Part shown: positions 7,905 through 28,669 of the stretch, piece after piece
How positions within the stretch are numbered: position 1 is the stretch's first letter
Layout of the letters: every line of letters starts with the position of its first letter
Source of the DNA: an uncultured Candidatus Saccharibacteria bacterium
GTDB lineage: Bacteria > Patescibacteriota > Minisyncoccia > JACPKW01 > UBA11713
Assembly (NCBI GenBank): GCA_964590055.1
Contig: CAZPXU010000001.1
Coordinates: 1 to 33,138, forward strand
Direction of reading: 5' to 3'
DNA: 33,138 bases
Translations under genes and position numbers: made by a program
Notes under the pieces: model-generated
Databases searched by the model: none
The model's input: the letters and a program-made list of their open reading frames with translations, nothing else
Told to the model about the DNA's origin: nothing

Positions 7905-8584
7905 TTTAAATTTTTATTGACTAACTGCGCGAGGGCAATCAACTGCTCGCGGGTGAATTTTTCGGCGCCTAAACCGTCAAATTCTAATCCGATATAAAAT
8001 TGTTTATTACCGTTCTCAAATCCTAGCGTCTTGCGCATAGCGTCATAAAATCCGAGCGATCCGACTTGGACTTGCTCAATCCCGCTCCCCGGAATTTTTG
8101 AAAAGCCCTGCGATTGTTCTAACGCAGACTGAAAAATATCAGTCATGTGGTAAATCACTGCGTTTACTCCCGCACGATCTTTAATATTACCGTTCGGATA
8201 ATAGGTATATGATCGATAATTACAGATTGTGGTCCCTTGTATCAATCCCCCGTATCTTGCATCATCCTCCGGAGGAAGCGCTTGGCGCAAAGCTTCCTTG
8301 GCCTGGCTTTCAATTTCTGGACTGGCGTTCTCAGCCACGATATTCTCACCAAAAATTTTTCTAACATCCGATTCTGGCGCAATTTTTTCACAAATCGGAG
8401 ATTGGCGGCTTCCGCGAGGCGCTTCACTGCCTACAATCTGGCCGGGGCTTTTCTTGGGTTCCGACAAAATTGGAGATACAGTTCTATTGTAGATATAAAT
8501 TCCTGTGCCAACCACGACAGCCGCCACTACAAGCGTTACAACAATACCAATAAAACCTTTTTCATTTTTAACTTTATTTGTCAC
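7901..8584 (-). CDS. hypothetical TM-anchored protein (227 aa)
   Basis: The GTG start sits in a GTGA overlap with the RCC1 gene stop. The N-terminal helix is FIGIVVTLVVAAVVVGTGIYIY. No family recognised. Confidence 0.6.
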   Translation of the reverse strand: MTNKVKNEKGFIGIVVTLVVAAVVVGTGIYIYNRTVSPILSEPKKSPGQIVGSEAPRGSRQSPICEKIAPESDVRKIFGENIVAENASPEIESQAKEALRQALPPEDDARYGGLIQGTTICNYRSYTYYPNGNIKDRAGVNAVIYHMTDIFQSALEQSQGFSKIPGSGIEQVQVGSLGFYDAMRKTLGFENGNKQFYIGLEFDGLGAEKFTREQLIALAQLVNKNLK

Positions 8585-15433: not shown

Positions 15434-16390
15434 TTAACCGTTGGGTTTTTCCGCGGCCGGGCTTTGGTGGTCCCTTTCTAAAATATAATTGTAAGCCGAG
15501 AGCGCGGCCCGCACGCCGTCCCCCGCCGAGATATTATTCTGCTTGTAGAGTTCGTCCGTAATGTCGCCGGCCGCGAAAATTCCGGGCCGCGAGGTTGCGG
15601 CGCGCCGATGGTCCAGCGCTATTTCTCCAAACTGGTTTATTTCCACCAAGCCCCTGGCAATCTCGGAATTCGGCACCGAGCCGATTTCCACGAAGATCCC
15701 CTCCAGCTTCAGTTCTTTCGTCTCGCCGCTCTTATTGTTCGCAAGCACGACTCCCTCGACGAATTTATCGCCTTTAATCTCCCTAACTTCGGTGTTAAAC
15801 ATAATCTCAACTTTATCCGAAGCCGTCACTTTCTCCTGAGTGATCTGATCGCCCCTCAAAGCATCGCCGCGCGAGACAAGATGGATTTTGGCGGCATACG
15901 GGAAAAGGTCCACTACCGCCTCCAGGGCCGCGTTCCCGCCGCCCACCACCGCAACCGCCTTGCCGCCGAACAGGGGCGCGTCGCAAGTGGAGCAATACGC
16001 CACTCCTTTTCCTTCAAGTTTATCCTCGCCGGGGACTTTAAGGCGGCGGCGTCTCGCTCCGGCGGTTACGATCAAGGCTTTGGCCTCAAGTTTTTCTCCG
16101 CCTTCCGTCGTCACGGAAAAGTTTTTTCCGCTTTCCTCTATTTTTGCGGCCTTCTCCGGCATTTTAACTTCAACCGTCTCCTGCGCCCGGACATGCTCCT
16201 CCATCTTTTGGGCGAGTTCAAAACCCGAAATGGATTTAGTCCCGATCCAATTCTGAATGTCGTCGGAGGTTATGGACTGCCCGCCGAAAGACTCGGTTAT
16301 CAAAAGAGTGTTCAGGCGCTTGCGGCCCGCGTAAACCGCCGCCGCCGCTCCGGCGGGGCCTCCGCCAATAATGATTAAATCGTATAACAT
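15434..16390 (-). CDS. trxB: thioredoxin-disulfide reductase-like flavoprotein
   Basis: Motifs: IIIGGGPAGAAAAVYA, the redox motif CSTCD, VVGGGNAALE, GIFAAGD. Length 318 aa. Confidence 0.8.
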   Translation of the reverse strand: MLYDLIIIGGGPAGAAAAVYAGRKRLNTLLITESFGGQSITSDDIQNWIGTKSISGFELAQKMEEHVRAQETVEVKMPEKAAKIEESGKNFSVTTEGGEKLEAKALIVTAGARRRRLKVPGEDKLEGKGVAYCSTCDAPLFGGKAVAVVGGGNAALEAVVDLFPYAAKIHLVSRGDALRGDQITQEKVTASDKVEIMFNTEVREIKGDKFVEGVVLANNKSGETKELKLEGIFVEIGSVPNSEIARGLVEINQFGEIALDHRRAATSRPGIFAAGDITDELYKQNNISAGDGVRAALSAYNYILERDHQSPAAEKPNG

Positions 16391-16407: not shown

Positions 16408-17784
16408 TTATGGAACCAGCTCTGGCCCCTTGTTCCGGTATTTCGTAATGAAGCCGGTGACGCGCCCGTTGTCCAGGGGACTTCCCTCCAGGTCAAATTT
16501 ATCCAAACGACCCCAGGCGGCAAGCGCGATATCGGCATCATTTTTGGAACGGGGCGTTAAAACCACTTTGGAAAAATCCCGCGCGATATCTTCCAGTTCT
16601 TTTGTTACTTCTGCCGGAATGCCGGGGCGGTAGGAAATCCAAACCTCGCCGTGCTCCAAATTATGCACCAGATATTCATCCGCCACCTCCTCCTTGTGAA
16701 TCCCGCGGGAGGTCGTCTCCGGCCAATGCGGCCCCGAAGTCGGGGGATTGGAATTGTAATTTCTGACTTCGGTCCCGATGCTGACGTGGTCTCTCGATAA
16801 AATTTCAACCGCCCGGCTCAAATCCGGACCGGAAAGGTCTTGTCGCCCTGCCAACAAATAATAACCGCCATACAAAACCGCAGCCAAAACGGCCAAGATT
16901 AAAACCCACTTCAAAATCTTTTTCATAACCAGGCGCTTTTGGGACGCCTCGAGCCCGCTTTTGCGCTCCTGCCTTCTAAGCTCGCGGCGCTCTTTTCTGA
17001 ATAAAACCTGAATGTTTTCTTCCATTAAAATATTTTCTCCCAAAAGATAGCGATAATCAATAATCCTCTCATAATTTATGAAATCAAAAAGACGATATCC
17101 CCATTGTATCATAAGCGAAAAACGATTCGTAAGAAGCAAAATCCCGAGGCCGATTAAAATTAAACCTCCAACCACTGAAAAAATCCAAAGATATTTTGAA
17201 AGTTTCTCAATGTACTCTTGGGCCGAGCCCCAAGCCCAGGCTACCGCCAAGAAAGGGACGGCGAGTCCCGCGGAAAAAACGGCCAAAAGTCCGGCGCCTT
17301 GAATTGCCGTGGTCGAGGTGGAAGCCAGAAGCAAAATTGAACCGAGCACGGGACCCACGCAAGGCGTCCAGCCGAAGGCAAAAGCCGAACCTAGAAGAAA
17401 AGAAGTAGTGGGTCTGCCCCGTTCCAAACCGAAAGGCAACTTAATTTGTCGCGCTCGCTCTAAAAACGGGAGGCGAATCACATTCAGCATCACGAGCCCG
17501 AAAAGGATAACGAAAACTCCGGCTATCTTGGTAAGTCCTAGACGATACGGCCCCAAATTTGCGCCTAAAAATCCAAAAGCGCTGCCAAATAGAATAAAAA
17601 CAAGAGAGAAACCCAAAACGTAAGCCCAACCGTTCAGAAAAACCTTCCGGCGCACCCCGGTTTTATCCTCCGAAGAGACTCCCGAAATAAATCCCAAATA
17701 GGCCGGCACCAGGGGAAAAGTGCAGGGGGCAAGAAAAGTCAAAAGCCCCGCAACAAAAGCCGGAATTATAAGCGAGTACTCCAT
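16408..17784 (-). CDS. CcdA/DsbD-type thiol-disulfide transporter fused to a DUF3105 domain
   Basis: Residues 1-~235 form six TM helices carrying APC(21)TFP and TPC(142)VGP. A K/R/E-rich linker and one more TM helix (KWVLILAVLAAVLYGGYYLL) follow. The DUF3105 motifs are PPTSGPHWP and VHNLEHGEVWISYRP. Confidence 0.8.
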   Translation of the reverse strand: MEYSLIIPAFVAGLLTFLAPCTFPLVPAYLGFISGVSSEDKTGVRRKVFLNGWAYVLGFSLVFILFGSAFGFLGANLGPYRLGLTKIAGVFVILFGLVMLNVIRLPFLERARQIKLPFGLERGRPTTSFLLGSAFAFGWTPCVGPVLGSILLLASTSTTAIQGAGLLAVFSAGLAVPFLAVAWAWGSAQEYIEKLSKYLWIFSVVGGLILIGLGILLLTNRFSLMIQWGYRLFDFINYERIIDYRYLLGENILMEENIQVLFRKERRELRRQERKSGLEASQKRLVMKKILKWVLILAVLAAVLYGGYYLLAGRQDLSGPDLSRAVEILSRDHVSIGTEVRNYNSNPPTSGPHWPETTSRGIHKEEVADEYLVHNLEHGEVWISYRPGIPAEVTKELEDIARDFSKVVLTPRSKNDADIALAAWGRLDKFDLEGSPLDNGRVTGFITKYRNKGPELVP

Positions 17785-18218
17785 GATTTCAAAGCGCTGC
17801 GCTGAACCTCTTCCAGATGCATAGAGGGTCGCTTTTCTTTAACAAATACCTCGGCTTTCTCCGGCGGCGCGCCTTTGGTTTTCATTAAATAGGCGGCAAC
17901 CAAAGTTGGAGCCCGGCCGTGCCCGTTCCGGCAGTGAACATAAATTTTCTTTTTCATCTGAACTAATTTTTCTAAAACTGCAACCCCAAATTCCAGCTGC
18001 TCCGGAGTCGGCGCGGCGTTATTTTTAACCGGAATCCAGACATAAAATTGAACCCCGAAAGGCGCATCAATCCTTTCTTCCTCCAAAGATAGGTCGGAAG
18101 AAATCCCCTCTTTCAAAAGCTTCTCGTCAAAATGCGTTTGGCAGCACTGATTGGTGCCGATATAAATGCCGTCCGCGATATAACTATATTCAAGCTCTTT
18201 AATGGAGTGCGGGGTCAT
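17766..18218 (-). CDS. dual-specificity/tyrosine protein phosphatase-like protein
   Basis: 150 aa, with the HCX5R P-loop VHCRNGHGRAPTLVAAYLM. Confidence 0.8.
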   Translation of the reverse strand: MTPHSIKELEYSYIADGIYIGTNQCCQTHFDEKLLKEGISSDLSLEEERIDAPFGVQFYVWIPVKNNAAPTPEQLEFGVAVLEKLVQMKKKIYVHCRNGHGRAPTLVAAYLMKTKGAPPEKAEVFVKEKRPSMHLEEVQRSALKSWSTRL

Positions 18219-18225
18219 AAAGAAT

Positions 18226-18266
18226 AAAAGCGCTGCTTGTTTATATTAAATCCAAGCAGCGCTTTT
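18226..18266 (-). terminator. intrinsic-terminator-like hairpin spanning the AroE-like stop codon
   Basis: The 14-bp perfect arms are aaaagcgctgcttg (18226-18239) and caagcagcgctttt (18253-18266), with a 13-nt loop that contains the TAA. On the minus-strand RNA the GC-rich stem is followed by UUUUAUUCUUU. Confidence 0.55.
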
Positions 18267-19262
18267 CATTACTTGTTTCACCTCCTCCTTGTTAATATTT
18301 TTTGCAGCGAGTTCCCGGCCGTGGAGAATCCAGAACGCCTCGACCGCTTGATTTACCACCATCCCGGTGCCGTCCAGAACTTTAAATCCCATCTTCCCGG
18401 CCTCCGCCAAAGTTCTGGTAGGCTCTTTTCTGAGCATGATGTCAGAAATTATAACCTCTCTATTTAACTGTCCCAGAATCCTTCGGCCGCTCTCAATATT
18501 CTTCCGGAGATTCTCTTCACTTGCGGGCAGCTCGACTTCTCCGAAAGCAACATATTGTTCTAAAGGCGAGTGAGGATCGTCAATCGCCGCCACCACCGCT
18601 TGGACTTCCAGAACTCGCGACGGTATTTCCTCTCTCCCCCCGCCGTAAGCCCTCGGCTTTCCGAAAAAATCGTTAATCCGCTTTGCCAGGGCTGCTGCCT
18701 TCCCCGGCGTCCGATTCAAAATAATAACTTCATTTGCTGACTCGGCCAGCGCAAAGGCAATGGCGTTCCCGGCGCCGCCTGCTCCCAGGACAAGAATTTT
18801 CTTCCCTTCAAGCTTCCCGCCTCTCTCGCTAAATACCGCCTCGAGGCTCTGGCGGTAGCCAACCCCGTCAGTACTTATCCCCCGCAATTTCCCTTCCTCG
18901 GTCTTAAGAATAAAATTTACCGCCCCGATGGCTTTTTCAATCTGCCCCAGCTCGTCAAGCCACCCGAGAGCTTCATCCTTAAAACCTATGCCGGTATTGC
19001 TGCCAAGAAATTTCGGATCGCACCTGAATACTTCGAAAATCTCGGGAATCCGAGCCGGGTCGCCCACTAGTGCGACATTGCCAGCTGCGAGCGAGAACTT
19101 GCGATAAGCCGCATTCCAAAGCTGAGGGGTTCTTGCGGGGTAGTCTTTTTCGCCGAGCCAGATGGTATAGCGAGAGAAATCAAGACGAGCTGGATTATCT
19201 TGCGGCTCCTGAGCATAGGACAAAAGCTCGTGCTCAATTAAATCGGATATTTGCATTGTCAT
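18246..19262 (-). CDS. shikimate/quinate dehydrogenase family protein (divergent, 338 aa)
   Basis: Motifs: ARTPQLWNAAY, GSNTGIGFKDE, IGAVNFIL....GKLRGISTDGVGY, and the Rossmann motif VLGAGGAGNAIAFAL. Confidence 0.7.
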   Translation of the reverse strand: MTMQISDLIEHELLSYAQEPQDNPARLDFSRYTIWLGEKDYPARTPQLWNAAYRKFSLAAGNVALVGDPARIPEIFEVFRCDPKFLGSNTGIGFKDEALGWLDELGQIEKAIGAVNFILKTEEGKLRGISTDGVGYRQSLEAVFSERGGKLEGKKILVLGAGGAGNAIAFALAESANEVIILNRTPGKAAALAKRINDFFGKPRAYGGGREEIPSRVLEVQAVVAAIDDPHSPLEQYVAFGEVELPASEENLRKNIESGRRILGQLNREVIISDIMLRKEPTRTLAEAGKMGFKVLDGTGMVVNQAVEAFWILHGRELAAKNINKEEVKQVMKSAAWI

Positions 19263-19273
19263 TGTTTCCTCCT

Positions 19274-19675
19274 TTAGATATACTCGAAGTGAATGAGACT
19301 GATAATGTCCTCGTAGCTGAACTCTTGGTTATAGATTAATCCCAAATGATATTTTATTAGTTCTCTCGACTGGCAATCTGGCGAAGCGAACTTTAATTCT
19401 GCTTTTCTTGTCCAACCCAGCTCTTTTACAACGATCTTCAAAATCCTAGCCCTGGCCTCAAACCCGTCAAAAATAGGAAGCAAATTCCACTTTTCCGCTC
19501 CGGGCTCTTGTAACACCCTTAATCTGACTTTCTGATGTTCCTTGAACCCCTTTGGATTCGGATACCTTCTGTCTCCGGGTTTTATGATAAGCTTCAGCCG
19601 CTTGTCCTTCAATAACGCTCGGTAAGGAAAGCGAAACCAGAGTTCATCAGCTAAATTCGACCTTTTTCCTTTCAT
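19274..19675 (-). CDS. hypothetical protein, possibly ASCH/PUA-like
   Basis: I chose the ATG at 19675; the track start at 19735 is a TTG that overlaps the SIS gene further. The ASCH resemblance is loose (..LKLIIKPGDRRY..., C-terminal ISLIHFEYI). Confidence 0.45.
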   Translation of the reverse strand: MKGKRSNLADELWFRFPYRALLKDKRLKLIIKPGDRRYPNPKGFKEHQKVRLRVLQEPGAEKWNLLPIFDGFEARARILKIVVKELGWTRKAELKFASPDCQSRELIKYHLGLIYNQEFSYEDIISLIHFEYI

Positions 19676-20312
19676 CTTGATTTCCTTTCTTTTTTGATTT
19701 TTTACCCAATGTTCCGCCGGGATGAATTTTGGCAAAATGTTTCAATTTAATCCCTTTAAGTTCTTGAAGCGCACTCGCCAGCGCATCTCCAATCGCAAGC
19801 GTAACCAAGGTAGAGGTAGTCGGCGCCAGATTAAAAGTGGTGCAGATTTTACAAGCCTCCTCGGCAACGCGGGTCAGCAAAACCACATCCGCCACCTTCG
19901 CCAGCGTGGAATTTTCAGTTCCGGCAATCAAAACTATTTTATTTTTAAAGTTCTTTCTAACGGCGGCGACGAAACTCACAACCTCGGGGGTCTCGCCGCT
20001 ATGGGAGATTAACACAATCGCGTCCTCTGTTTCAACCATTCCCAAATCCCCGTGCAACGCCTCCGTTGGATGCAAAAATAAGCTGAAGGTGCCGGTGGAG
20101 GAAAGGGTCGCCGCAATTTTTCGGGCCACAATCCCGGATTTTCCAAGGCCAGATAGTATTATTTTCCCTTTGCACTCACAGATCAGTCTAACCGCTTTTG
20201 CAAAGTTCGAATCCAGCTTCTCCGCGACGTGCTTTACCGCCGCAGCTTCATTCTCCAAAACTTCCCTTCCGATTCGTAAGATATCATTTTTTTTAAAACT
20301 ATTACTTTTCAT
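19647..20312 (-). CDS. SIS-domain sugar-phosphate isomerase, KpsF/GutQ-like but without CBS domains
   Basis: GKIILSGLGKSGIVARKIAATLSSTGTFSLFLHPTEALHGDLGMV...VLISHSGETPEV closely follows the KpsF SIS signature. The protein ends just after HPGGTLGKK, where KpsF would continue into its CBS pair. Confidence 0.8.
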   Translation of the reverse strand: MKSNSFKKNDILRIGREVLENEAAAVKHVAEKLDSNFAKAVRLICECKGKIILSGLGKSGIVARKIAATLSSTGTFSLFLHPTEALHGDLGMVETEDAIVLISHSGETPEVVSFVAAVRKNFKNKIVLIAGTENSTLAKVADVVLLTRVAEEACKICTTFNLAPTTSTLVTLAIGDALASALQELKGIKLKHFAKIHPGGTLGKKSKKKGNQDERKKVEFS

Positions 20313-20322
20313 TTTTGCCTAG

Positions 20323-21682
20323 CTATACCATGTAAGCGACGTCTGAAAAACTGGTGGGATAGGCCCAGGGAATTTCCCGAAGTTCGGAAGCGGGAAAACC
20401 TTTTCGGATGGCGAGAGCAAAAACATTGATTACTTCTTCGGCATGCGCCCCAAAAAGATGCGCTCCCAAAATTTTCCCGCTCCCCTCCTCTATCAGCACC
20501 TTATAACCGGTGGGCCGCAGGTTCAGTCGCCGCGAGGAGTACCATTCCGAGGTATCGGCGTGATTCACTCGAAACTTCAAACCCTGCTTCTGCGCGATCT
20601 CCTCGCTTAATCCGACTGCCGCCAGGGGCGGGAGAGTGAACACTACACTTGGTACTCCGAGGTAATTTAGGGTGGCGTGATTTTTGTCAAGAAGATTTTT
20701 CGCAGCCACCGCCCCTTCCAGGCCCGCCACCGGCGTCAAGGGAAAGCCGCCCGAGACCGCGGCATCGCCAGCCGCATAGACGCGCGGGTTGGTAACGCTC
20801 TGAAGATATTCATTTACCACCACTCCTTTTCGCTCCCTCTTGATATGCGCCCTCTCCAGTTCTAAATCGTCAATATCGGGAATCCGACCTGCGCCGTGGA
20901 CCACCAATTCGGCTTCAAACTTTTTGGTATGACCGTCCGAGGAGGCATAGACGTAAAAACCATTCGCGCCTTTTTCAATTCGTTCGACGGCGCTACTGAC
21001 TGCCAGGTTTATGCCGACTTCCCGGCTTGTTTCCGAAAGCATTCTTACCAGATCCGGATCAAATAATTCCAAGGGCCTGGGCCCGCGATGAAGAATCGTA
21101 ACCCCGGCGCCGGCCCGCGCCGCCACATGCGCGAATTCGAAGGAGATATAGCCGCCCCCCGACAAAAACAATTTGCCTGGGAAGCGCCGCAAGTTCTAAA
21201 AATTGGGTACTGGTGGCAAGATGTTCTTCCCCGGGAATACCCAGCGTTTGGGGCTTGGCGCCGGCGGCGATTAAAAAATAATCGGCGCTAAAAATTTTTT
21301 CTCCAACTTGAACGGCATCGTCATCAACAAATCTAGCCCGCCCCTTCAGAAGCTCGATGCCCGCCGCTTGGGCTGAACTACGGTAATGTTCCGAAACGGA
21401 GCCGGTAAAGCTCTTTTTGAAACGAATCAAGGCGGGCCAATCAATTTCGGTATTCCCCCGGATGATTTTTTTAGCTAAAAACCGCCTCTGCCAATCCATG
21501 AACTCTGCGCCTCCCACCAGAACTTTTTTAGGGTCGCAACCGCGTAGGGCGCAGGTTCCGCCGAAAGGATTAGAATCAATTATCAAAACCTCCCAGCCTC
21601 GCTTGCGGCAAGCGTAAGCGGCAGCGGACCCGGCGGCCCCGCTTCCTATTACGATTAGATTAAATTTATCATTAGACTTCAT
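20323..21682 (-). pseudogene. class-I pyridine nucleotide-disulfide oxidoreductase (glutathione-reductase-like), interrupted by a 1-nt frameshift
   Basis: ORFs 21059-21682 and 20323-21192 are the two halves of one ~452-aa protein. It carries GSGAAGSAAA (FAD) and GGTCALRGCDPKK (redox centre). The frame breaks inside IVFVGG|GYISFEFA at the C6 run 21155-21160. Deleting one base restores the frame. Confidence 0.8.
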
Positions 21683-21848
21683 TTAATTTTTCCGGCATTA
21701 TTCCCTGCTTGATAATTTCTAGGTTGCAGCTTTTCTTCTCGCGGCACCAATCTTCGCATTTTTGGGCAATCTCTTTGTCTTGGTACAAAAATCCGCAGGC
21801 TTCGCACTGGTAATGGGTTTTATTGTTCTCTTGAATAATTTTTACCAT
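21672..21848 (-). CDS. small Cys-rich (zinc-ribbon-like) protein, 58 aa
   Basis: MVKIIQENNKTHYQCEACGFLYQDKEIAQKCEDWCREKKSC... The ATG at 21848 lies 1 nt after the LUD stop. The 3' end overlaps the oxidoreductase start by 11 nt. Confidence 0.55.
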   Translation of the reverse strand: MVKIIQENNKTHYQCEACGFLYQDKEIAQKCEDWCREKKSCNLEIIKQGIMPEKLNEV

Positions 21849-21849
21849 A

Positions 21850-22470
21850 CTAAAATCCAAGTTTTTCCTTGACCAGGATAATAGTAATGCGGCCAGGTTG
21901 AAATTCTTTATTGATAATCAAAATTTTATTGACTCCGCTCCCCATGCCGTAAACCTTTCTGGCGCGCTCGTCTTCCAACGGCAAAGCATATTCATAAAGG
22001 CGCTTTAATCCTTCTGCAACGTTCTTTACAATTTTTTGGGCACCGACCACCCAAACCACTTTCGCTGCGCCGTAAGCATAAGCCGGGAGTTGGCTGCCGG
22101 TGGCGGAGGCCACCAGAACTTCCCCATCCTCGGTTACGGCATGCGCGCTCCCCACCGCCCATTCCGGCGCCGCTCCCAGGCGGCGCTTCTCGGCGCTTTG
22201 AGTTTTATCGTCCATCTGATTCAAAAGATTCCGCACGGATTTAAAATCCCCTCCTTTGTTTATTTCCGCGGGAACGCCGATGGCCTCCAAGGTCATTGAG
22301 GTCATATCCATGACCTCGGCGCCTTCGGGAATAATCTCAAAAAGCTTTGCCCTCGCCTCGGCCCCGTTCCCTGCCACCAAAGCCGTAATGCCGTTTTTCT
22401 CAAGCGCCGCTTTAGCTCTTGCGATTGAGGCGTCATCAGGAAGCTCTCCAAATTTGTCGTTTATTTCCAT
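21850..22470 (-). CDS. LUD-domain (DUF162, LutC/YkgG-like) protein
   Basis: 206 aa. The overall pattern (N-terminal ...ALEKNGITALVAGNGAEA..., central GSAHAVTEDGEVLVAS) resembles LUD-domain proteins. This is recognition by eye only. Confidence 0.65.
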   Translation of the reverse strand: MEINDKFGELPDDASIARAKAALEKNGITALVAGNGAEARAKLFEIIPEGAEVMDMTSMTLEAIGVPAEINKGGDFKSVRNLLNQMDDKTQSAEKRRLGAAPEWAVGSAHAVTEDGEVLVASATGSQLPAYAYGAAKVVWVVGAQKIVKNVAEGLKRLYEYALPLEDERARKVYGMGSGVNKILIINKEFQPGRITIILVKEKLGF

Positions 22471-22475
22471 ATTTT

Positions 22476-23000
22476 TTAATTGTTAGCCATTAAACTTGTA
22501 ATCCGGCCTTTAATTTCTTCCAAATCCATCGGGCCGCGCTTATGAAACGCGATATTTCCATCTTTGCTGACAAAAATCGTCTCCGGCATGGAAAAACCGC
22601 CGATGGACTGATAAAAAGAATCAGCCGGGTCAAGCAGAAAAACCAAATCATCCGTCACCCCCAAGTCATCCGTGAATTTTTTGGCCGTTGCCAACGGTTC
22701 GGCGCGGTCAATCGCGATTATAACAATTTTATCGCCGAATTCTTTTTGAGCCGTCGCAAAATCCTCCAGCTCCTTTACGCAAAAGGGGCACCAGGCCGCC
22801 CAAGCGTTTAGGACGAGGGGCTTTCCTTTAAAATCCGCCAGGCTTACGCTCTTGCCATTATAATCATTAAGCGAAAATTCCGGAGCTTTGCGAGAGTTGC
22901 CGGTTGAATTCATATTTTGGTGTTGACCCGTGTTGGAAATCAGCAACCACCCGACTATAACTAAAACCGCAATGCTGATAATAATTAAAGGTATTTTCAT
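22476..23000 (-). CDS. TM-anchored TlpA/ResA-like thioredoxin-fold thiol-disulfide oxidoreductase
   Basis: An N-terminal helix is followed by GKPLVLNAWAAWCPFCVKE. Confidence 0.85.
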   Translation of the reverse strand: MKIPLIIISIAVLVIVGWLLISNTGQHQNMNSTGNSRKAPEFSLNDYNGKSVSLADFKGKPLVLNAWAAWCPFCVKELEDFATAQKEFGDKIVIIAIDRAEPLATAKKFTDDLGVTDDLVFLLDPADSFYQSIGGFSMPETIFVSKDGNIAFHKRGPMDLEEIKGRITSLMANN

Positions 23001-23015
23001 ATTATAATTTTGGTA

Positions 23016-23408
23016 CTACGTTTGTAATTGCGGAGCCGGCGGCTTTTTAAAGAGATATTTATTGTAGATCACCGCTCCGATGATGAGTACGGCACCCGGT
23101 CCCCAAATCTGCCACGCGCCCCATGTGCTTAAAAATACGTATCGACCGACATAAAGAAGTGCCGCACCAAGAGAAAGAAGTGCTAACGGATAGGGGTTTC
23201 TATGAGATCTGTAGTCAAAGATAAAGCCGATTGCGCCAAGAGCAATCAACCCGAATGCAAACCAACGCCATGCCGGTATGAGAGCTCCCAAACCTAAATA
23301 TGTTAAAAGAGAAGCCGAACCAATCCAGCAAAGCGGGCAGACTCCAATTGCTCCCGCTCCCAAAATCGGCGTCAATCTTATTGATAACTTTTTGAAATTA
23401 TTTGTCAT
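23016..23408 (-). CDS. 4-TM membrane protein with an intramembrane CPLC motif (loosely MerC-like)
   Basis: GAGAIGVCPLCWIGSASLL lies in TM1. The loop DYRSHRNPYP sits between TM2 and TM3. Architecture and Cys placement recall MerC, but the assignment is weak. Confidence 0.6.
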   Translation of the reverse strand: MTNNFKKLSIRLTPILGAGAIGVCPLCWIGSASLLTYLGLGALIPAWRWFAFGLIALGAIGFIFDYRSHRNPYPLALLSLGAALLYVGRYVFLSTWGAWQIWGPGAVLIIGAVIYNKYLFKKPPAPQLQT

Positions 23409-23417
23409 CGCTCATGA

Positions 23418-24455
23418 TTATTTAAATAATTCTGTCTCCGGATGCGTCGCCGCCCAAGAAAACCAAAAGGCCGAAAAAGGGTTTATACGCTCTAATTTAC
23501 CATCTGGAAATTTTTTATACATACGGATAACGTCCAACTCTTTTTCATACCTAAGTAAAAAGGTCTCACCGGCAAAAGCGTCTTCCGCCTCTCCGGCTTT
23601 CTTCACCGCCTCCACGCTCCAGGCCTTTGCCTTTTCTCCGGACGCGAGCCCGAAAACGAAGGCGTTGGGCGCGAGGCGCCGGTCGGAAAAATTCGTTAAG
23701 TCCAAAGAAAAGCCGGTAACGGCGTAGTAATCGCCGTAAGGGTTATAGCCGTAAGACCTCATAGTGCCGGTCTCCTGGGACAGGACTTCGCCGTCGGGAT
23801 GCGAGCGTTTCCATTCCCCGAAGCGCAGCTGGTCGGAGGGCAGAAGTTTCAATTTTGTCCCCGTCATTTCGCCGACCACCGCCTCCCCCAAAATCTGCGG
23901 CCACAGAGATTCGGTTTTGCGGTCGTACATTACGAGATTGGATTTCCATAAACTTCCCGAAGTTCCGAACTCAACCCGCTCCCCCTTCACCAAAGGGTCA
24001 AAGACAAAACCCGTAAGGCACAAGGGACAATAGGTCACCAAAACGCGCTCGCCGGAGACAACATCGTTCACAATCTCATGCCAAACTAAAATCCGGTAGG
24101 GGTAAAAGCGATGGGCAGAGCCGCGAGAAAACGCGACCCCGGGATTATCGTCCGGCAACCATTTCTTCGCCTCCGTGACGGACACAAACTTGGGGCGGTC
24201 AATGGACGGTATCCCGTCTTTGCCCGGCCCGCCGGAGATAATTTCATTAAGCGGAACGCTATGTTTTACGCCATCGGTAACCATGATTTTCTTTTCAACA
24301 ATTTCACCATCTTTATCATTTTCAACAACTCCAACACTCTCGACTTTAGTCTCGCCGCCTTGCGGCAATTTAAAATCTTCCCTGAAAAATCTCGACCAGA
24401 TGAAAACGCCTCCCGCAACCAGAATTAAAATTACCAAAACCCAATTCGCTTTCAT
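23418..24455 (-). CDS. DUF3179-domain secreted or anchored protein
   Basis: An N-terminal helix is followed by DGIPSIDRPKF...YPYRILVWHEIVND...VLVTYCPLCLTG, which is characteristic of DUF3179. Confidence 0.8.
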   Translation of the reverse strand: MKANWVLVILILVAGGVFIWSRFFREDFKLPQGGETKVESVGVVENDKDGEIVEKKIMVTDGVKHSVPLNEIISGGPGKDGIPSIDRPKFVSVTEAKKWLPDDNPGVAFSRGSAHRFYPYRILVWHEIVNDVVSGERVLVTYCPLCLTGFVFDPLVKGERVEFGTSGSLWKSNLVMYDRKTESLWPQILGEAVVGEMTGTKLKLLPSDQLRFGEWKRSHPDGEVLSQETGTMRSYGYNPYGDYYAVTGFSLDLTNFSDRRLAPNAFVFGLASGEKAKAWSVEAVKKAGEAEDAFAGETFLLRYEKELDVIRMYKKFPDGKLERINPFSAFWFSWAATHPETELFK

Positions 24456-24688
24456 TTGATTTTCAAAAGCTCCCGCAATTTTTCCTCATCAAAACCAATC
24501 ACAATCCCGCCGTCGATTTCCGTAACCGGAACGCCCATCTGCCCGGATTTTTGAATCATTTCCCGGGCATTATCCTGATTTCCGGCAACATCTTTCTCCT
24601 CATAAACTACCGCGTTCTTTTTGAAAAACTCCTTGGTGGCGCGGCACCAGACGCAAGTGGGAGTGGAATAGATGGTTACTTTTGGCAT
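24452..24688 (-). CDS. glutaredoxin-like (NrdH/YruB-type) small redoxin
   Basis: 78 aa, VTIYSTPTCVWCRATKEFF...GVPVTEIDG. Its stop forms a 4-nt overlap with the DUF3179 start. Confidence 0.85.
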   Translation of the reverse strand: MPKVTIYSTPTCVWCRATKEFFKKNAVVYEEKDVAGNQDNAREMIQKSGQMGVPVTEIDGGIVIGFDEEKLRELLKIK

Positions 24689-24689
24689 G

Positions 24690-25004
24690 TTAAATTCTTA
24701 AAACTCTAATAATGGCTCCAACCGCGGGATCGCTTTTTTTCACTTCATAACAAATCATCTGGCCGTGGCGTTCCCTCCGGACAAGCCCGGCCCGCTCCAG
24801 AACGCGAAGTTGCTGGGAAGCGGCCGGCACCGAGATCCCCAGCACGCGGGCGATATCGGTCACGCAGGCTTCCGACTCCGAGAGCAGTATTTTAAAAATA
24901 CGAAAGCGCCCGGGGTCTGAAAGCGCCGCAAAAAAAACCGACAGCCGTTCCTCGCCTGGCTCCAGCACCTTCTTCAATTTTATGATTTTCGTCTTTGGAA
25001 ACAT
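24690..25004 (-). CDS. ArsR/SmtB-family winged-helix transcriptional regulator
   Basis: Motifs: FFAALSDPGRFRIFKILL..EACVTDIARVLGISVPAASQQLRVLERAGLVRRERHGQ. The ATG at 25004 is preferred to the TTG at 25022. Confidence 0.85.
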   Translation of the reverse strand: MFPKTKIIKLKKVLEPGEERLSVFFAALSDPGRFRIFKILLSESEACVTDIARVLGISVPAASQQLRVLERAGLVRRERHGQMICYEVKKSDPAVGAIIRVLRI

Positions 25005-25029
25005 TATTAAGTGTTTAAGCAATTATTTA

Positions 25030-25101: not shown

Positions 25102-25281
25102 CTATTCTTCGTCTTCTTCCGGCATCAAAACCCGGACTTCTTTCTTGCACTCGCACCATTGGCAGCGCCCATCCTTGTATTTCTTGCCGTGCTGATGTTT
25201 GCACTTTGCGCAGGAAACTATCGGACAGCCGCAGGGGCAGACTTTTAAATGGTGGTGCCCGCATTCTTCGCAGTGGGGCAT
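25102..25281 (-). CDS. 59-aa Cys/His-rich, metallothionein-like small protein
   Basis: One codon below the track cutoff. My base-by-base translation is MPHCEECGHHHLKVCPCGCPIVSCAKCKHQHGKKYKDGRCQWCECKKEVRVLMPEEDEE*, with 10 Cys and 6 His. It is co-oriented with all neighbours and starts 14 nt after the DsbA-like stop. The 90-aa plus-strand ORF in the track is antisense to it. Confidence 0.5.
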   Translation of the reverse strand: MPHCEECGHHHLKVCPCGCPIVSCAKCKHQHGKKYKDGRCQWCECKKEVRVLMPEEDEE

Positions 25282-25295
25282 GAAATTATTTTTAC

Positions 25296-26018
25296 TTAAT
25301 CAAGGCCGAGAGTTGCCGCGAAACTTTTAAGATTCCGGTCCGAAAACGCGCCAACGTTCTCGCCGCTTATGTTTTTGGAGTAATAGTTGTCCCAGATGTA
25401 ATTAAAAAGGTAATCATGGTACTCCCAGAATTTCCCCTGCTCCCCGGCGCACCTGGCCGCCTCGGCCGCGCGCGCTGATTCCTCGCCCAAAAAAGCGAAA
25501 TCGCGCCAGACAAACGCGGTTTTCCCGGATTTCAAATACGTTTCTTTCAGCTGCTGTTCGGTGGTCTTAAAAAATTTCCCGCAAAACGGGCACTGGAAAT
25601 CCCCGTATTCGATAATCGCGACTTTGGCCGCGGGAGACCCCAAAACAAAATCATCTTCGCGGATTTTCAAAGCATCCGGCAAGGAGGAATTCTGCGACGC
25701 CAGCTCCGCTTCAATCGGCTCCTGAAAAGACGAAAACGGCACCGCGCCGGAAACCATCCGGCCATTTACGAAAGTGGCCGGCGTGCCGTTAACGCCCAAA
25801 GTTTTTCCCTCTTCCGTCGCGGCTTCAACGGCTTTCCTGTGCTTGCCCGAATCCAGACAGGAAGCAAAAACGGGAGGAAACGAGGCATCGTCTCCGGAAC
25901 CGGAGGGCGCAGAAGAAAGTTTCAGCCCCGGCCTGGCATAAACCACCGCCGCGGCTATCAGAACCCCAGCAACGATGATGCTGGCAGGTACAAGATAGGG
26001 ATTTCGTCCTTGGTCCAT
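25296..26018 (-). CDS. TM-anchored DsbA-family (Thioredoxin_4-like) protein with permuted segment order
   Basis: The CPFC segment (AKVAIIEYGDFQCPFCGKF...GKFWEYHDYLF...FAATLGLD) lies C-terminal. The segment that normally ends the domain (FASCLDSGKHRKAV....LGVNGTPATFVNG) lies N-terminal, right after the TM helix. Confidence 0.85.
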   Translation of the reverse strand: MDQGRNPYLVPASIIVAGVLIAAAVVYARPGLKLSSAPSGSGDDASFPPVFASCLDSGKHRKAVEAATEEGKTLGVNGTPATFVNGRMVSGAVPFSSFQEPIEAELASQNSSLPDALKIREDDFVLGSPAAKVAIIEYGDFQCPFCGKFFKTTEQQLKETYLKSGKTAFVWRDFAFLGEESARAAEAARCAGEQGKFWEYHDYLFNYIWDNYYSKNISGENVGAFSDRNLKSFAATLGLD

Positions 26019-28669
26019 GGATTAAACAGAGGATTAAACACCTCGATAAAATCGGGATTTTGAATGTTGACCGTGAGATTCAGGGCGGTGGTTCTGACGG
26101 TTCCTCCGGAGGAGCCCTGGATGGTTATGACGTAGGTTCCGGGGGTGGTACTGCCCGGTATGGTAACACGGTAGCTGGAGCCAGTCGAATACTCGTTCGA
26201 ACAGGAAGGCGGGTTTTGACAGGAAAGAGTCGGGTCCGAAAAGAGATGCTGGGTTCCGGAAGGAAGGGGCGGAGAGACCGAGAGGAGGGAGAGGGCGACA
26301 GGAGAGGAGAAGTTGTTGAAGGGAGTGACGCGGACGGTGGAGAGGGTGGAAGTGGCGGAAGCGGAGCCGACGATGGTGGCGGCGATGTTGCCGGAGTTGG
26401 TGAGAGAGTAGTCCGGGGGCGGGACGCACTGGCTCGAACTCTGGCAGGCCGAGACGCCGCAGGACGGGATGGAAACGCAGGAAGTGCCGCTGCATTCGTT
26501 GTGGGGGGTGCTCTGGCCTACGGGGCAGTCGTTCTCGTCGTTATCCGAGACCGAGGAGCAGCCGGGATCGGTGGCAGCCGAACCCACAAGCAGGGAGTCG
26601 GCGTGGTCAATCTTGCCGTCGCCGTCGTTATCAATGCCGTCGGTGCACTGGCTGTTTCCGCCCCCTCCGCCTCCACCGCCGCCTCCTCCGCCTCCGGTGC
26701 AGTAGTTATTGTTCAAACAAGTACTGGCTCCGCAGGCGTCCACGGAAACACAAGAACCCGACTGGCAGGTGACGTAAGGTTTTGTCTGGCCCACCGGGCA
26801 GAGAGGGTTTACGGTGATAGTGACATAGGAAGGGCCAGCCGTTCCTCCGGGACCCTGGCAGGTTACGGAGTAAGTGGTCGTGGAGGGCGGGGTTACCGGC
26901 TTGGAGCCGGAGGTGGCACCCCCGGTGTCAAAGTTGCCGCCGGTGCAGCTCGTGGCGTTCTGGGAGGTCCAGGAAAGAGTGGAGGACTGGCCTTGGATAA
27001 TGGTGGTCGGGTTTCCGGTGAAAGTGAGGGTGGGCGAGGAGGCCGCTCCGACATTCACCGTGACGCTGTCGGAAGATGGATTTCCTCCGCCTGTGCATGA
27101 AAGAGTGTAAGTTTGCGAAGAAGTCAGATTGCCAGTGGATATGCCTGTGTTAAAAGTTCCTGTCCAACCGGTTGGAGAAACCGAGCAGCTAGCCGCATTC
27201 TGCGAAGTCCAGCTGTCGGTGGCGGCGGTGTTGTACGCGATGGTAATCGGGCCGTCCGAGCTATTGGCTTTGATGTCCGCAGCCGTGGGGGCCGCGCCCA
27301 CGTTTACGGTGACGCTGTCGGAGGCGGAACCGGAAGCATTGGCGCAGGTAATGATATAAGTCTTGTTTTGAGTCAGGTTCCCGGTGGACTCGGAGCCGGA
27401 GGTAGCTTTGGCTCCAGACCAGGAGCCGGAAGCGCTGCAGTTTTCGGCATTGGTTGAGGACCAGGAAAGAGTGGCTGCGGCATTGTGGGCGATGCTGACC
27501 GGGCCGTCCGAGCTATTGGCTTTGATGTCTGCCGTGGGAGGAGGAACGACATCTATGTTCCAAGATAGAGTGGCGGCGTTAATTGTGCCTGGAGTGTAAA
27601 AGTTGGTGACGTTGACCTTGTCTGTTCCATAAGAAGTTATATGGTTATCTCCTGTGCACAGGTTAGTGCAGTTGAATGCCTGTCCTTCGTCAAACTCACA
27701 AAGTCTGTTGCAACCCCCTTCTTCTCCTTGATCACATTGTACGGTTTGAGTCTGCCCTTCAGAGTTTTCAAATTCTTTAGCGTTGCACGCTGGCCCACCA
27801 GGATTATGATCTGAAGGTTCATAACTGGGAATCGCCGATTCAAGTGCGCTAGTCCCGAATTGCCAAGAAATCTCCCGGCCACGAACAGGATAATATGCCT
27901 GTGTTGAGCCAATATTTGTAGAGATTTCCGCCTGCGGGCCGCTGGTTGTAATTGTACAAGTAGTCGTGTATTTTCTGATACCCTCCGACGTATCACTTTC
28001 GGAAAGAGTGCCGCAATTCATCCCAGAGGCGCTTAAACTAACAGACGGCTTTTTAATCGAGGTCTGTAAACAATTTGCCCGATTTTGAGCGGTATCATAT
28101 AAATGCTGGGGAGGGCAATAATTTGCCGGAACCGGTGTCGTTCCTTGGTATTGAAAGACGCTGTATGGCGCATTTTTATATTCGTATACTTGGAATTGTC
28201 CTGTATAAGAAACGCATCCGTTTTCCGGTCCGCAGAGGGTCGTGGCCGGAAAAGCGCCTCTATATGTCCATGAAGGCGGAGCGAGCTTTGAAATAAAATC
28301 GTCCCCTACCCAAGGGGCTGGTGGCGAATCAACCCAGCTGCCGGTCATCAAATAAGAACTTTCCGCGATAAGCTCAAAAGTTACTTTGTCTCCAGGCTTA
28401 AGCTTGGTATCTGATTTAATAAGCGTTCCGGAATCTTTTTCGCGCACCTCTCCGGTGTAATTTACTTTAACAATCGCGGCGATATTGTGAGTATCCGGCT
28501 GGCCTAAATTATAATAATAAACAGCATCTCTTTGGGCACTCTGCTGCCCCAAAGTCGTCGCCGCAACAGCGGAATCCGGGAGGCGCGCTTCAAAAGAGCC
28601 CGCGACCAAAAGCGCGCCGATTAAAAACAGGGTTACTAGCAATGCGTGATGATGTTCTTTGAATGTCAT
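25958..28669 (-). CDS. 903-aa N-terminally anchored, Cys-rich modular surface protein
   Basis: N-terminal helix LLVTLFLIGALLVAG, three tandem ~83-aa Ig-like repeats, two CPVGQ...SCVS..CG..C modules flanking a Gly13 tract, and a DGIDNDGDGKIDHAD Ca-binding-like motif. The 3' end overlaps the DsbA-like start by 61 nt. Confidence 0.8.
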   Translation of the reverse strand: MTFKEHHHALLVTLFLIGALLVAGSFEARLPDSAVAATTLGQQSAQRDAVYYYNLGQPDTHNIAAIVKVNYTGEVREKDSGTLIKSDTKLKPGDKVTFELIAESSYLMTGSWVDSPPAPWVGDDFISKLAPPSWTYRGAFPATTLCGPENGCVSYTGQFQVYEYKNAPYSVFQYQGTTPVPANYCPPQHLYDTAQNRANCLQTSIKKPSVSLSASGMNCGTLSESDTSEGIRKYTTTCTITTSGPQAEISTNIGSTQAYYPVRGREISWQFGTSALESAIPSYEPSDHNPGGPACNAKEFENSEGQTQTVQCDQGEEGGCNRLCEFDEGQAFNCTNLCTGDNHITSYGTDKVNVTNFYTPGTINAATLSWNIDVVPPPTADIKANSSDGPVSIAHNAAATLSWSSTNAENCSASGSWSGAKATSGSESTGNLTQNKTYIITCANASGSASDSVTVNVGAAPTAADIKANSSDGPITIAYNTAATDSWTSQNAASCSVSPTGWTGTFNTGISTGNLTSSQTYTLSCTGGGNPSSDSVTVNVGAASSPTLTFTGNPTTIIQGQSSTLSWTSQNATSCTGGNFDTGGATSGSKPVTPPSTTTYSVTCQGPGGTAGPSYVTITVNPLCPVGQTKPYVTCQSGSCVSVDACGASTCLNNNYCTGGGGGGGGGGGGGNSQCTDGIDNDGDGKIDHADSLLVGSAATDPGCSSVSDNDENDCPVGQSTPHNECSGTSCVSIPSCGVSACQSSSQCVPPPDYSLTNSGNIAATIVGSASATSTLSTVRVTPFNNFSSPVALSLLSVSPPLPSGTQHLFSDPTLSCQNPPSCSNEYSTGSSYRVTIPGSTTPGTYVITIQGSSGGTVRTTALNLTVNIQNPDFIEVFNPLFNPWTKDEIPILYLPASSLLGF
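26807..27538 (-). repeat. three tandem ~250-nt coding repeats (Ig-like domains) inside the 903-aa gene
   Basis: The repeats span aa 378-460, 461-542 and 543-621 (ADIKANSSDGP.(S/T)IA...LSW.S.NA..C....TY...C....G...DSVTVNVGAA). A 30-nt identical block, cgggccgtccgagctattggctttgatgtc, occurs at 27248-27277 and 27500-27529, a period of 252 nt. Confidence 0.8.

Follow-up and report, generated by a model that had tools for sequence, protein, structure and literature searches.

We describe a gene for a membrane-anchored DsbA/Thioredoxin_4 oxidoreductase in which the two parts of the catalytic domain follow each other in swapped order. The gene (25296..26018, reverse strand) lies on a stretch of 33,138 nucleotides of contig CAZPXU010000001.1 from an uncultured Candidatus Saccharibacteria bacterium; this whole stretch is referred to as the window. 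Its product runs from a transmembrane anchor through the C-terminal third of the domain and a linker into the N-terminal two thirds, where it stops. We regard it as highly probable that the protein is a genuine and selectively maintained natural circular permutant of the DsbA/BdbD type, that the permutation arose in situ, and that it is independent of a second permuted family, which is named here P0229 type after one of its proteins. The gene is a variant of a well-known enzyme type and represents a traceable, recurrent natural permutation and no new kind of system. Proteins and loci used for comparison are numbered with the prefixes P and L.

Swapped order of the domain and its predicted fold

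The open reading frame (ORF) starts with ATG and encodes 240 amino acids, and its translation matches the one quoted in an earlier reading made from the letters of the window (the sequence-only reading), which had proposed a circular permutation. A protein identical to it is present in a public sequence collection. The Pfam profile Thioredoxin_4 (PF13462; 106.4 bits at a cut-off of 23.2) aligns residues 122-206 with profile positions 4-88 of 165, and the profile DSBA (PF01323; 56.5 bits, cut-off 25.6) aligns residues 51-101 with positions 139-189 of 191. Since the end of the DSBA profile precedes the beginning of Thioredoxin_4 along the protein, the order is swapped. The canonical protein P0005, taken as a control, yields a single Pfam stretch over profile positions 4-165. 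Searching PDB sequences with phmmer gave the same swapped pair of matches against DsbA/TsdA of C. diphtheriae, and pairwise alignments with P0005, P0006, P0007 and P0010 contain two segments in swapped order which cover the domain once. The matches, with E-values from 1e-15 to 1e-30, are far too strong for chance. All three approaches bear out the claim that the segments correspond by homology to the C-terminal and the N-terminal part of canonical DsbA/BdbD-type proteins, in exchanged position. By hhalign, an alignment of permuted proteins (A2) matched one of canonical proteins (A3) over query residues 117-240 with 82% identity (E 4e-80); this comparison returned the N-part only, both halves being visible by Pfam and pairwise alignments. 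No curated Pfam or NCBIfam family models the permuted order. By homology the window protein belongs to the DsbA/Thioredoxin_4 family; in topology it is a variant, as it departs from the linear order of the family.

The sequence-only reading had also held that the C-terminal GLD and the N-terminal F.SCLDSG join precisely into the canonical motif. Both parts were aligned separately to 116 canonical homologs, in which the equivalents of D240 and F51 lie 2-4 residues apart, and exactly three residues apart in 103 of the 116. The ends therefore rejoin as the canonical ..LGLD-xxx-F.SCLDSG, with nothing lost or duplicated, just as had been proposed; as compared to the canonical proteins, the window protein is without the three residues between ..LGLD and F.SC.

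Read along the chain, the C-part (residues 50-106) is FASCLDSGKHRKAVEAATEEGKTLGVNGTPATFVNGRMVSGAVPFSSFQEPIEAEL, i.e. FASCLDSGKHRKAVE...GVNGTPATFVNG...IEAEL, the segment between C-part and N-part is the linker ASQNSSLPDALKIRED, and the N-part is DFVLGSPAAKVAIIEYGDFQCPFCGKF...GKFWEYHDYLF...FAATLGLD, with the stop directly after. The cysteines of the CPFC motif (residues 143-146, at the start of a helix predicted for 144-162) are invariant in alignments A1, A2 and A3, and the threonine and proline of the cis-Pro loop sit immediately ahead of the predicted strand E81-84. Two further cysteines, C54 and C190, are invariant as well; canonical relatives have them together, and TsdA and 3GYK have neither. 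Like C97 and C146 of Wolbachia α-DsbA1, a possible analogue, C54 and C190 may be joined by a structural disulfide, which would fasten the new N-terminal helix to α2. The membrane anchor aligns with that of the canonical relatives, where the corresponding segment of P0005 is modelled as a helix (H6-25), and the canonical P0006 and the permuted P0003 both have MDQERN.YLIPASIIVAGLLIAFAVVYT. Tether 1, which follows the anchor, is rich in Ser, Gly and Pro.

Structures were predicted with AlphaFold2 (AF2) from an alignment of 69 natural permuted sequences, and the canonical P0005 was modelled in the same way. The window model has a mean predicted local distance difference test score (pLDDT) of 82.4 and a predicted template modelling score (pTM) of 0.78. 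Means over blocks of ten residues are 88-98 for most of residues 51-240, with two blocks at 74 and 84; the anchor and the tether alone are poorly predicted. Residues 49-107 are modelled as helix-helix-strand-strand-helix with pLDDT 90-98, like the last five elements of P0005, in line with the earlier assignment of residues ~50-105 to the end of the canonical fold. For linker 2 neither a strand nor a long helix is predicted. Both models have the identical set of 12 elements (five strands, seven helices), rotated in the window protein, where the chain is cut in the helical insert, between α4 and α5. The window protein is thus predicted to form one compact DsbA-like domain, a thioredoxin fold with helical insert. 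Foldseek against the PDB retrieved DsbA/TsdA (7UNN and 4PWO, ~118 columns, 2.2-2.5 Å), BdbD, α-DsbA1 and ScsC, with probability 1.00 for the DsbA, TsdA, BdbD and ScsC structures.

With the canonical membrane-anchored Thioredoxin_4 proteins (BdbD, 3EU3; DsbA/TsdA, 4PWO/7UNN; P0005, P0006, P0007) the window protein shares CPFC, the Thr-Pro loop, C54 with C190, the anchor and the genomic position. Its N-core is 85-88% and its C-core 70-75% identical to P0005, P0007 and P0008 (69% to P0006 by BLASTP), the whole C-part being 66-75% identical to the C-terminal segment of P0005, P0007 and P0008. In contrast to these proteins, α5-α7 come first and β1-α4 last. The one clear consequence of the permutation, as far as the models go, would be a tether that joins the domain at the helical insert and no longer at β1.

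Among the PDB matches, the sole permuted DsbA is an engineered one, 1UN2, the crystal structure of cpDsbA_Q100T99. It ranks 28th by Foldseek with 179 columns, more than any other of the first 30 matches (E 0.024, TM-score 0.38/0.47). Engineered circular permutants of E. coli DsbA go back to Hennecke, Sebbel and Glockshuber (1999), as cited in PMC3281007 and PMC13552848. They resemble the window protein in the DsbA fold, in the joining of the old termini by a short linker and in the new termini inside the helical insert; however, cpDsbA is a laboratory construct of a soluble periplasmic protein and only ~16% identical to the window protein. Its old termini are reportedly joined by about five residues. 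We take T99/Q100 of E. coli DsbA to map before helix α4, i.e. to the second natural cut class described below, whereas the window protein is cut after α4. The literature search for natural permuted DsbA or thioredoxin-like proteins yielded only the engineered DsbA permutants and a hypothesis on DsbB and VKOR, and nothing relevant was found in the literature on DsbA in the Candidate Phyla Radiation (CPR)/Patescibacteria. DsbB and VKOR have been proposed to be related by circular permutation, with duplication and deletion invoked (PMC4555120). That case concerns an ancient relation of distant membrane-protein families, inferred from structure, whereas the core segments of the window protein are 70-88% identical to canonical relatives and an orthologous canonical gene is known.

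Conservation, selection and the reality of the gene

The search for homologues of the same permuted order, suggested along with the permutation itself, turned them up in many independent assemblies. Three of the best 120 homologs, each a cluster representative, have the swapped order (P0001, P0002 and P0003, 88-91% identity), and the remaining 117 are all canonical, 116 with a single domain and one with two domains. The sources of the three are a JGI metagenome, an ENA groundwater assembly and an NCBI metagenome-assembled genome (MAG). The 90% cluster of the window protein alone has 39 distinct members from NCBI, JGI, ENA and Logan. In all 16 cluster members that were read (13 of the window cluster, three of the P0002 cluster) GTP precedes CPFC and the end is ..LGLD, and the 19 retrieved members of the three clusters (43 members in all) without exception share architecture and stop. 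The genes of the window, L001 (NCBI MAG), L006 (JGI) and L007 (ENA) have the same order, junctions and stop codon.

Compared over their whole length, these four orthologous genes have ratios of nonsynonymous to synonymous substitution rates (dN/dS, Nei-Gojobori) of 0.14-0.37, with 0.08-0.26 for the N-part and 0.15-0.65 for the C-part; tether 1 is the least constrained part of the gene (0.19-0.75, and 2.4 in one close pair). Identity of the gene at the DNA level is 90-100% to L006 and L007 and 70-98% to L001, and falls to 55-80% in both flanks. Of the positions conserved in at least 80% of canonical proteins, a single one differs in the window clade, residue 60 (Tyr to His). Unusually fast evolution of the C-part after permutation was considered and rejected, its identity of 66.9% standing against 73.6 ± 8.9% in canonical pairs at equal N-core identity, a difference of less than one standard deviation. 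A nine-residue extension of helix α3, YIWDNYYSK, varies within the permuted clade: it is present in the window, L006, L007 and 16 cluster members, absent from L001/P0003 and the nearest canonical proteins, and recurs in more distant canonical homologs.

The shared order across assemblies, the dN/dS values and the residue conservation together make a mis-assembly or a decaying fragment very unlikely. Related genomes often carry DsbA genes and domains in tandem, and assemblers can be misled by repeats of this kind, so a mis-joined contig, a binning error or a collapsed tandem repeat had to be considered; its probability is close to negligible given that order, junctions and stop recur in the window, the three further loci and every cluster member read, that these copies differ by 9-12% of their amino acids and are thus not copies of one error, and that the window holds no second DsbA-like segment. 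Slightly more thought is due to a non-functional remnant of a tandem DsbA array, in which the end of one copy became fused to the start of the next. The architecture is indeed what would result from cutting a tandem-domain protein out of register with its domains, many representatives matching residues 50-206 as one stretch across a domain boundary, and the C-part dN/dS reaches the 0.65 given above in one close pair with few substitutions. However, no copy has a broken reading frame, both parts have dN/dS values well under 1, and conservation is higher in the gene than in its flanks. In addition, the conserved family residues are kept but for the one mentioned, AF2 gives a complete domain, and an older permuted family built in the same way, with 52-83% identity, has persisted among core genes. 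We consider decay very improbable.

Origin of the permutation and other permuted families

A canonical positional ortholog is found at locus L003. Its product, P0006, has an anchor sequence nearly that of the permuted P0003; a long gene for a Cys-rich surface protein overlaps its start by 60 nucleotides, a gene for a 59-amino-acid protein follows directly, and DUF3105, thioredoxin reductase (TrxR), GluDH and GAPDH lie beyond. The canonical proteins closest by sequence, P0005 and P0012, come from short contigs with a Cys-rich surface-protein gene upstream and TrxR downstream. As these three canonical proteins occupy the same locus of related genomes, the permutation arose in situ. The synonymous divergence (dS) is saturated towards all canonical relatives and amounts to 0.12-0.47 within the permuted clade, and this pattern places the event before the split of the four orthologs and after the split from the sampled canonical lineages. 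Linker 2 retains DALKIR(E/K)DDF (here DALKIREDDF), which in the canonical P0005, P0007 and P0010 precedes strand β1, as would be expected from a tandem duplication of linker and domain.

Tandem DsbA proteins are abundant. Among the best 150 cluster representatives from a library of 1.84 billion proteins, most are tandem DsbA proteins of 400-1200 amino acids with 3-10 matched stretches, and many match query residues 50-206 in one stretch that spans a domain boundary. In such proteins (P0065 with two domains; P0121 with ~5 domains) the internal stretch from the C-part of one unit through the linker to the N-part of the next is ordered as in the window protein; the difference is that their domains on either side are complete and the window protein amounts to exactly one domain. 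P0121 has 1163 amino acids and 10 matched stretches. An in-frame tandem duplication of linker and domain would be the most likely first step, after which the N-part of the first copy and the C-part of the second would have been lost. Such an origin by duplication and then loss at both ends is plausible.

A scan of genomes had a canonical gene of Candidatus Giovannonibacteria as best match, and neither the window species nor a close permuted ortholog was among its matches. When the query was split into two parts and searched by tblastn against 80 loci of GTDB species representatives, more genes came to light in which a single ORF runs from an anchor through C-part, linker and N-part to the stop. 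L009 and L033 have the cut point of the window protein, and at L033 (5692..7707) the permuted gene stands between two canonical DsbA genes. A second class is cut one helix earlier, before α4 (L022, L027, L058, L063, L084). Its members start with ..A..LGLD..F.SCL and end about 10-17 residues past FWEYHD.LF, and in L022, L027 and L058 the DSBA profile is matched from position 118-125 onwards, as compared to 139 in the window. Hosts are Levyibacteriota (L058) and other Patescibacteria MAGs, some of the records being labelled 'Gammaproteobacteria' or 'Saccharibacteria'. In the same scan, L033, L042, L060, L065, L072, L073 and L083 were seen to carry two to three DsbA units in a row (N-C-N-C-N-C), as separate genes or multi-domain proteins.

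The P0229 type came out of an exhaustive search of representatives, in which P0229 (258 amino acids) matched query residues 6-238 in one stretch. With P0229 as query, 65 permuted proteins were among the best 120 hits (each a 90% cluster), with 52-83% identity to P0229, and all but three of the 65 end in ..L(G/K)LK. These proteins of Paceibacterota/Patescibacteria agree with the window protein in the sequence anchor, C-part, linker, N-part, stop, in the cut loop and in a proline just before the first phenylalanine. They differ in being 41-51% identical overall, in an insertion in the β4-β5 region and in a different conserved locus (DUF378 / rpoD-dnaG); in both members looked up in their genomes, P0300 and P0312, the neighbourhood reads rpsB, tsf, glycosyltransferase, DUF378, permuted gene, rpoD, dnaG, rpoC. 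Canonical proteins with the signature of the P0229 subfamily exist as well.

Neighbour joining of 234 sequences recovered the window clade as monophyletic in all 100 bootstraps and joined it with the P0229 type in none. Canonical proteins stand on both sides of the split between the two (100/100), and the window protein nests with P0005, P0012 and P0014. Its N-core and C-core are 88% and 75% identical to canonical relatives, as against 73% and 46% to the P0229 type. From tree and identities it follows that the same loop was used independently at least twice, and the neighbouring loop in other lineages. The window protein lies outside the P0229-type clade, with no common permutation event. Going beyond the sequence-only reading, permutation is recurrent in Patescibacteria and the window case is an independent one with canonical positional orthologs.

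The swapped order may be real and yet have come about by another route, either by acquisition of or gene conversion from a permuted gene, e.g. of the P0229 type, or by movement of a C-part segment into the tether. The cut point is the same, a proline lies 2-3 residues before the first phenylalanine in the P0229 type ((V/M)P(V/I)F) as in the window protein (PPVF), the single tether of P0006 is similar to tether 1 in its first half and to linker 2 in its second (a weak likeness of low-complexity sequence), and dS is unequal between the parts. Yet both parts are nearer to the local canonical relatives than to the P0229 type, no bootstrap supports a common clade, the window C-part is without the P0229-type insertion GTPKGFILKDGKVVDTIDGA, and tandem-domain relatives make a duplication easy; we judge such a route improbable. 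The parts could also complement each other between chains, in a domain-swapped dimer or oligomer, perhaps a dimeric isomerase like DsbC/ScsC. Permuted and split thioredoxin-fold proteins can domain-swap, multimeric ScsC-type proteins are among the structural matches, and CcdA and a TlpA-like Redoxin are encoded nearby. Against this speaks the confident AF2 monomer, with the parts packed in one chain and the pTM given above, in which residues 108-123 alone lie between α7 and β1 and suffice for a confident intramolecular model. A swapped oligomer is therefore quite improbable.

Several points weigh against a functional permutant formed in situ by duplication and loss. The dS to every canonical relative is saturated (>1), so that the steps cannot be dated or ordered. 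No two-domain intermediate was found in the window lineage, and beside the gene no remnant of the lost segments is recognisable, the spacer to the next gene having 14 nucleotides. Between the window and L001, dS is 0.16 in the C-part and 0.71 in the N-part (25299..25874 compared with L001 5748..6293). Preservation of the fold is a prediction by AF2, whose alignment held permuted sequences only, and the alignments by Foldseek, a sequential aligner, are partial with TM-scores of about 0.4. With regard to function, the sequence would fit an oxidase and a CcdA-fed reductase or isomerase like ScsC alike, and neither a VKOR nor a DsbB gene lies within the window. The dS contrast between the two parts hints at a mosaic history with recombination inside the gene, and so does the distribution of YIWDNYYSK.

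The spacer together with the start of the next gene (TAAGTAAAAATAATTTCATGC) was also examined as a possible remnant of the lost C-part, on account of a loose, unscored match to E-A-K-F-N-S-C codons. It was rejected because its ATG belongs to the conserved 59-amino-acid gene.

Putative function, neighbouring genes and significance

The simplest reading of the protein is an extracytoplasmic membrane-tethered thiol:disulfide oxidoreductase. The single N-terminal anchor would hold the enzyme outside the cell. The chain would make α5-α6, the cis-Pro loop, β4-β5 and α7 first, cross the 14-residue linker and finish with β1-β2, the CPFC helix α1, β3 and α2-α4. With the active site and nearly all conserved family residues intact, it would carry out thiol-disulfide exchange on secreted or surface proteins like its canonical relatives. 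CcdA, a TlpA-like Redoxin and TrxR are encoded near the DsbA gene, and the window also holds a glutaredoxin, an ArsR regulator and a MerC-like protein.

The upstream gene encodes a Cys-rich protein of surface type with a run of 13 glycines and with repeated 'C..G.DNDGDGKID' and Cys-spaced modules, and its overlap with the DsbA start is common to L001, L003, L006 and L007. The protein is a candidate substrate of the DsbA enzyme, and expression of the two genes is possibly coupled. The 59-amino-acid protein encoded downstream looks like a small metal-binding protein; neither it nor the 903-amino-acid protein has a Pfam match. Its gene lies directly downstream of the DsbA gene in permuted and canonical loci, with 85% nucleotide identity to the L003 copy after P0006, and marks the window locus as orthologous to the canonical ones.

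Between the 59-amino-acid gene and the CcdA/TrxR/GluDH/GAPDH genes stands a block of ~7.3 kb (17766..25022) with redox and metal-related genes (ArsR regulator, glutaredoxin, DUF3179, MerC-like, TlpA-like Redoxin, LUD domain, Pyr_redox_2 enzyme, SIS, shikimate-DH-like and DSP phosphatase). In L001 and L002 the flanking genes are directly adjacent, so the block looks like an insertion. Within it, a pyridine-nucleotide disulfide oxidoreductase (20323..21682, reverse strand) is divided between two overlapping ORFs: 21059..21682 covers profile positions 2-150, and 20323..21192 covers positions 144-291 and the dimerisation domain. The split could reflect a frameshift, a pseudogene or a sequencing error. 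The CcdA/DsbD_TM membrane domain is fused to DUF3105 in the window, and DUF3105 is a separate gene of 200 amino acids in L002-L005. Elsewhere in the window (8581..10428, reverse strand) a 615-amino-acid protein combines six RCC1 repeats with DUF2341, an unusual combination in a small-genome bacterium.

Table. Positions of the permuted DsbA gene, its parts and predicted elements, neighbouring genes, and genes of the second cut class. H, helix; E, strand; res, residues.
Feature	Position	Strand	Basis or remark
Permuted DsbA/Thioredoxin_4 oxidoreductase gene, membrane-anchored	25296..26018	-	ORF list, Pfam; stop at 25296-25298
N-terminal hydrophobic membrane anchor, res ~10-28, VPASIIVAGVLIAAAVVYA	25935..25991	-	sequence reading
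Tether 1, res 29-48, RPGLKLSSAPSGSGDDASFPPV, from anchor to new domain N-terminus	25875..25934	-	pLDDT <50 up to res 40
C-part, placed first, res 49-107 (α5, α6, cis-Pro loop, β4, β5, α7)	25698..25874	-	Pfam DSBA, AF2
Thr79-Pro80 in GTP cis-Pro loop	25779..25784	-	invariant in permuted (A2) and canonical (A3) alignments
Linker 2, res 108-121 (14 residues), SQNSSLPDALKIRE, from old C-terminus (α7) to old N-terminus (β1)	25656..25697	-	pairwise alignments, AF2
N-part, placed last, res 122-240 (β1, β2, α1 with active site, β3, insert helices α2-α4)	25299..25655	-	Pfam Thioredoxin_4, hhalign, AF2
Active-site motif Cys143-Pro-Phe-Cys146	25581..25592	-	reverse complement TGCCCGTTTTGC
Nine-residue extension YIWDNYYSK of helix α3, res 207-215	25374..25400	-	varies within permuted clade
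Window protein, predicted elements, first part	H49-57, H61-73, E81-84, E87-90, H96-107, then linker		AF2
Window protein, predicted elements, second part	E124-127, E133-139, H144-162 (CPFC), E167-173, H179-193, H197-213, H227-236		AF2
Canonical P0005, predicted elements, first	E59-62, E68-74, H79-97, E102-108, H114-127, H132-141, H153-162		AF2
Canonical P0005, predicted elements, last	H167-175, H180-192, E200-203, E206-209, H214-226		AF2
Upstream gene, 903-amino-acid Cys-rich surface-type protein	25958..28669	-	ORF list; last 60 nucleotides overlap DsbA start
Downstream gene, 59-amino-acid Cys/His-rich protein (MPHCEECGHHHLKVCPCGCP...CQWCEC...)	25102..25281	-	14 nucleotides past DsbA stop
CcdA(DsbD_TM)-DUF3105 gene	16408..17784	-	Pfam
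TlpA-like Redoxin	22476..23000		Pfam
TrxR	15434..16390		Pfam
Second-class gene, L022	2830..3654
Second-class gene, L027	5365..6210
Second-class gene, L058	5647..6582
Second-class gene, L063	5650..6549
Second-class gene, L084	5884..6756

Whether the recurrence of permutation among Patescibacteria DsbA proteins reflects a selected adaptation and not a neutral accident is a further question. At least three lineages would independently have placed the termini in the helical insert and re-tethered the enzyme via its helical cap, the α4/α5 loop being used twice (window clade, P0229 type) and the α3/α4 loop once or more (L022, L027, L058, L063, L084). We hold the adaptive reading to be rather doubtful. 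If true, it would mean an altered reach or orientation of CPFC towards a membrane partner or surface substrates, or a different succession of folding elements on exit from the Sec channel.

As a rule, natural circular permutations are deduced from the comparison of distant families, by a route that is no longer traceable. Here, canonical genes at the same locus, cores of 70-88% identity and abundant tandem relatives as possible intermediates come together with repeated and independent use of two helical-insert loops, and one of these loops is probably the site tolerated in engineered E. coli DsbA. This offers a good natural test bed for the duplication-deletion model and for the question which loops of thioredoxin and DsbA proteins accept new termini. 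The public names of the permuted proteins are generic, those of the P0229 type being just 'thioredoxin domain-containing protein' or 'protein-disulfide isomerase'. Domain annotation gives two partial hits, and sequential aligners including Foldseek see half of such proteins; a sizeable group of CPR disulfide-bond enzymes is therefore mis-described.

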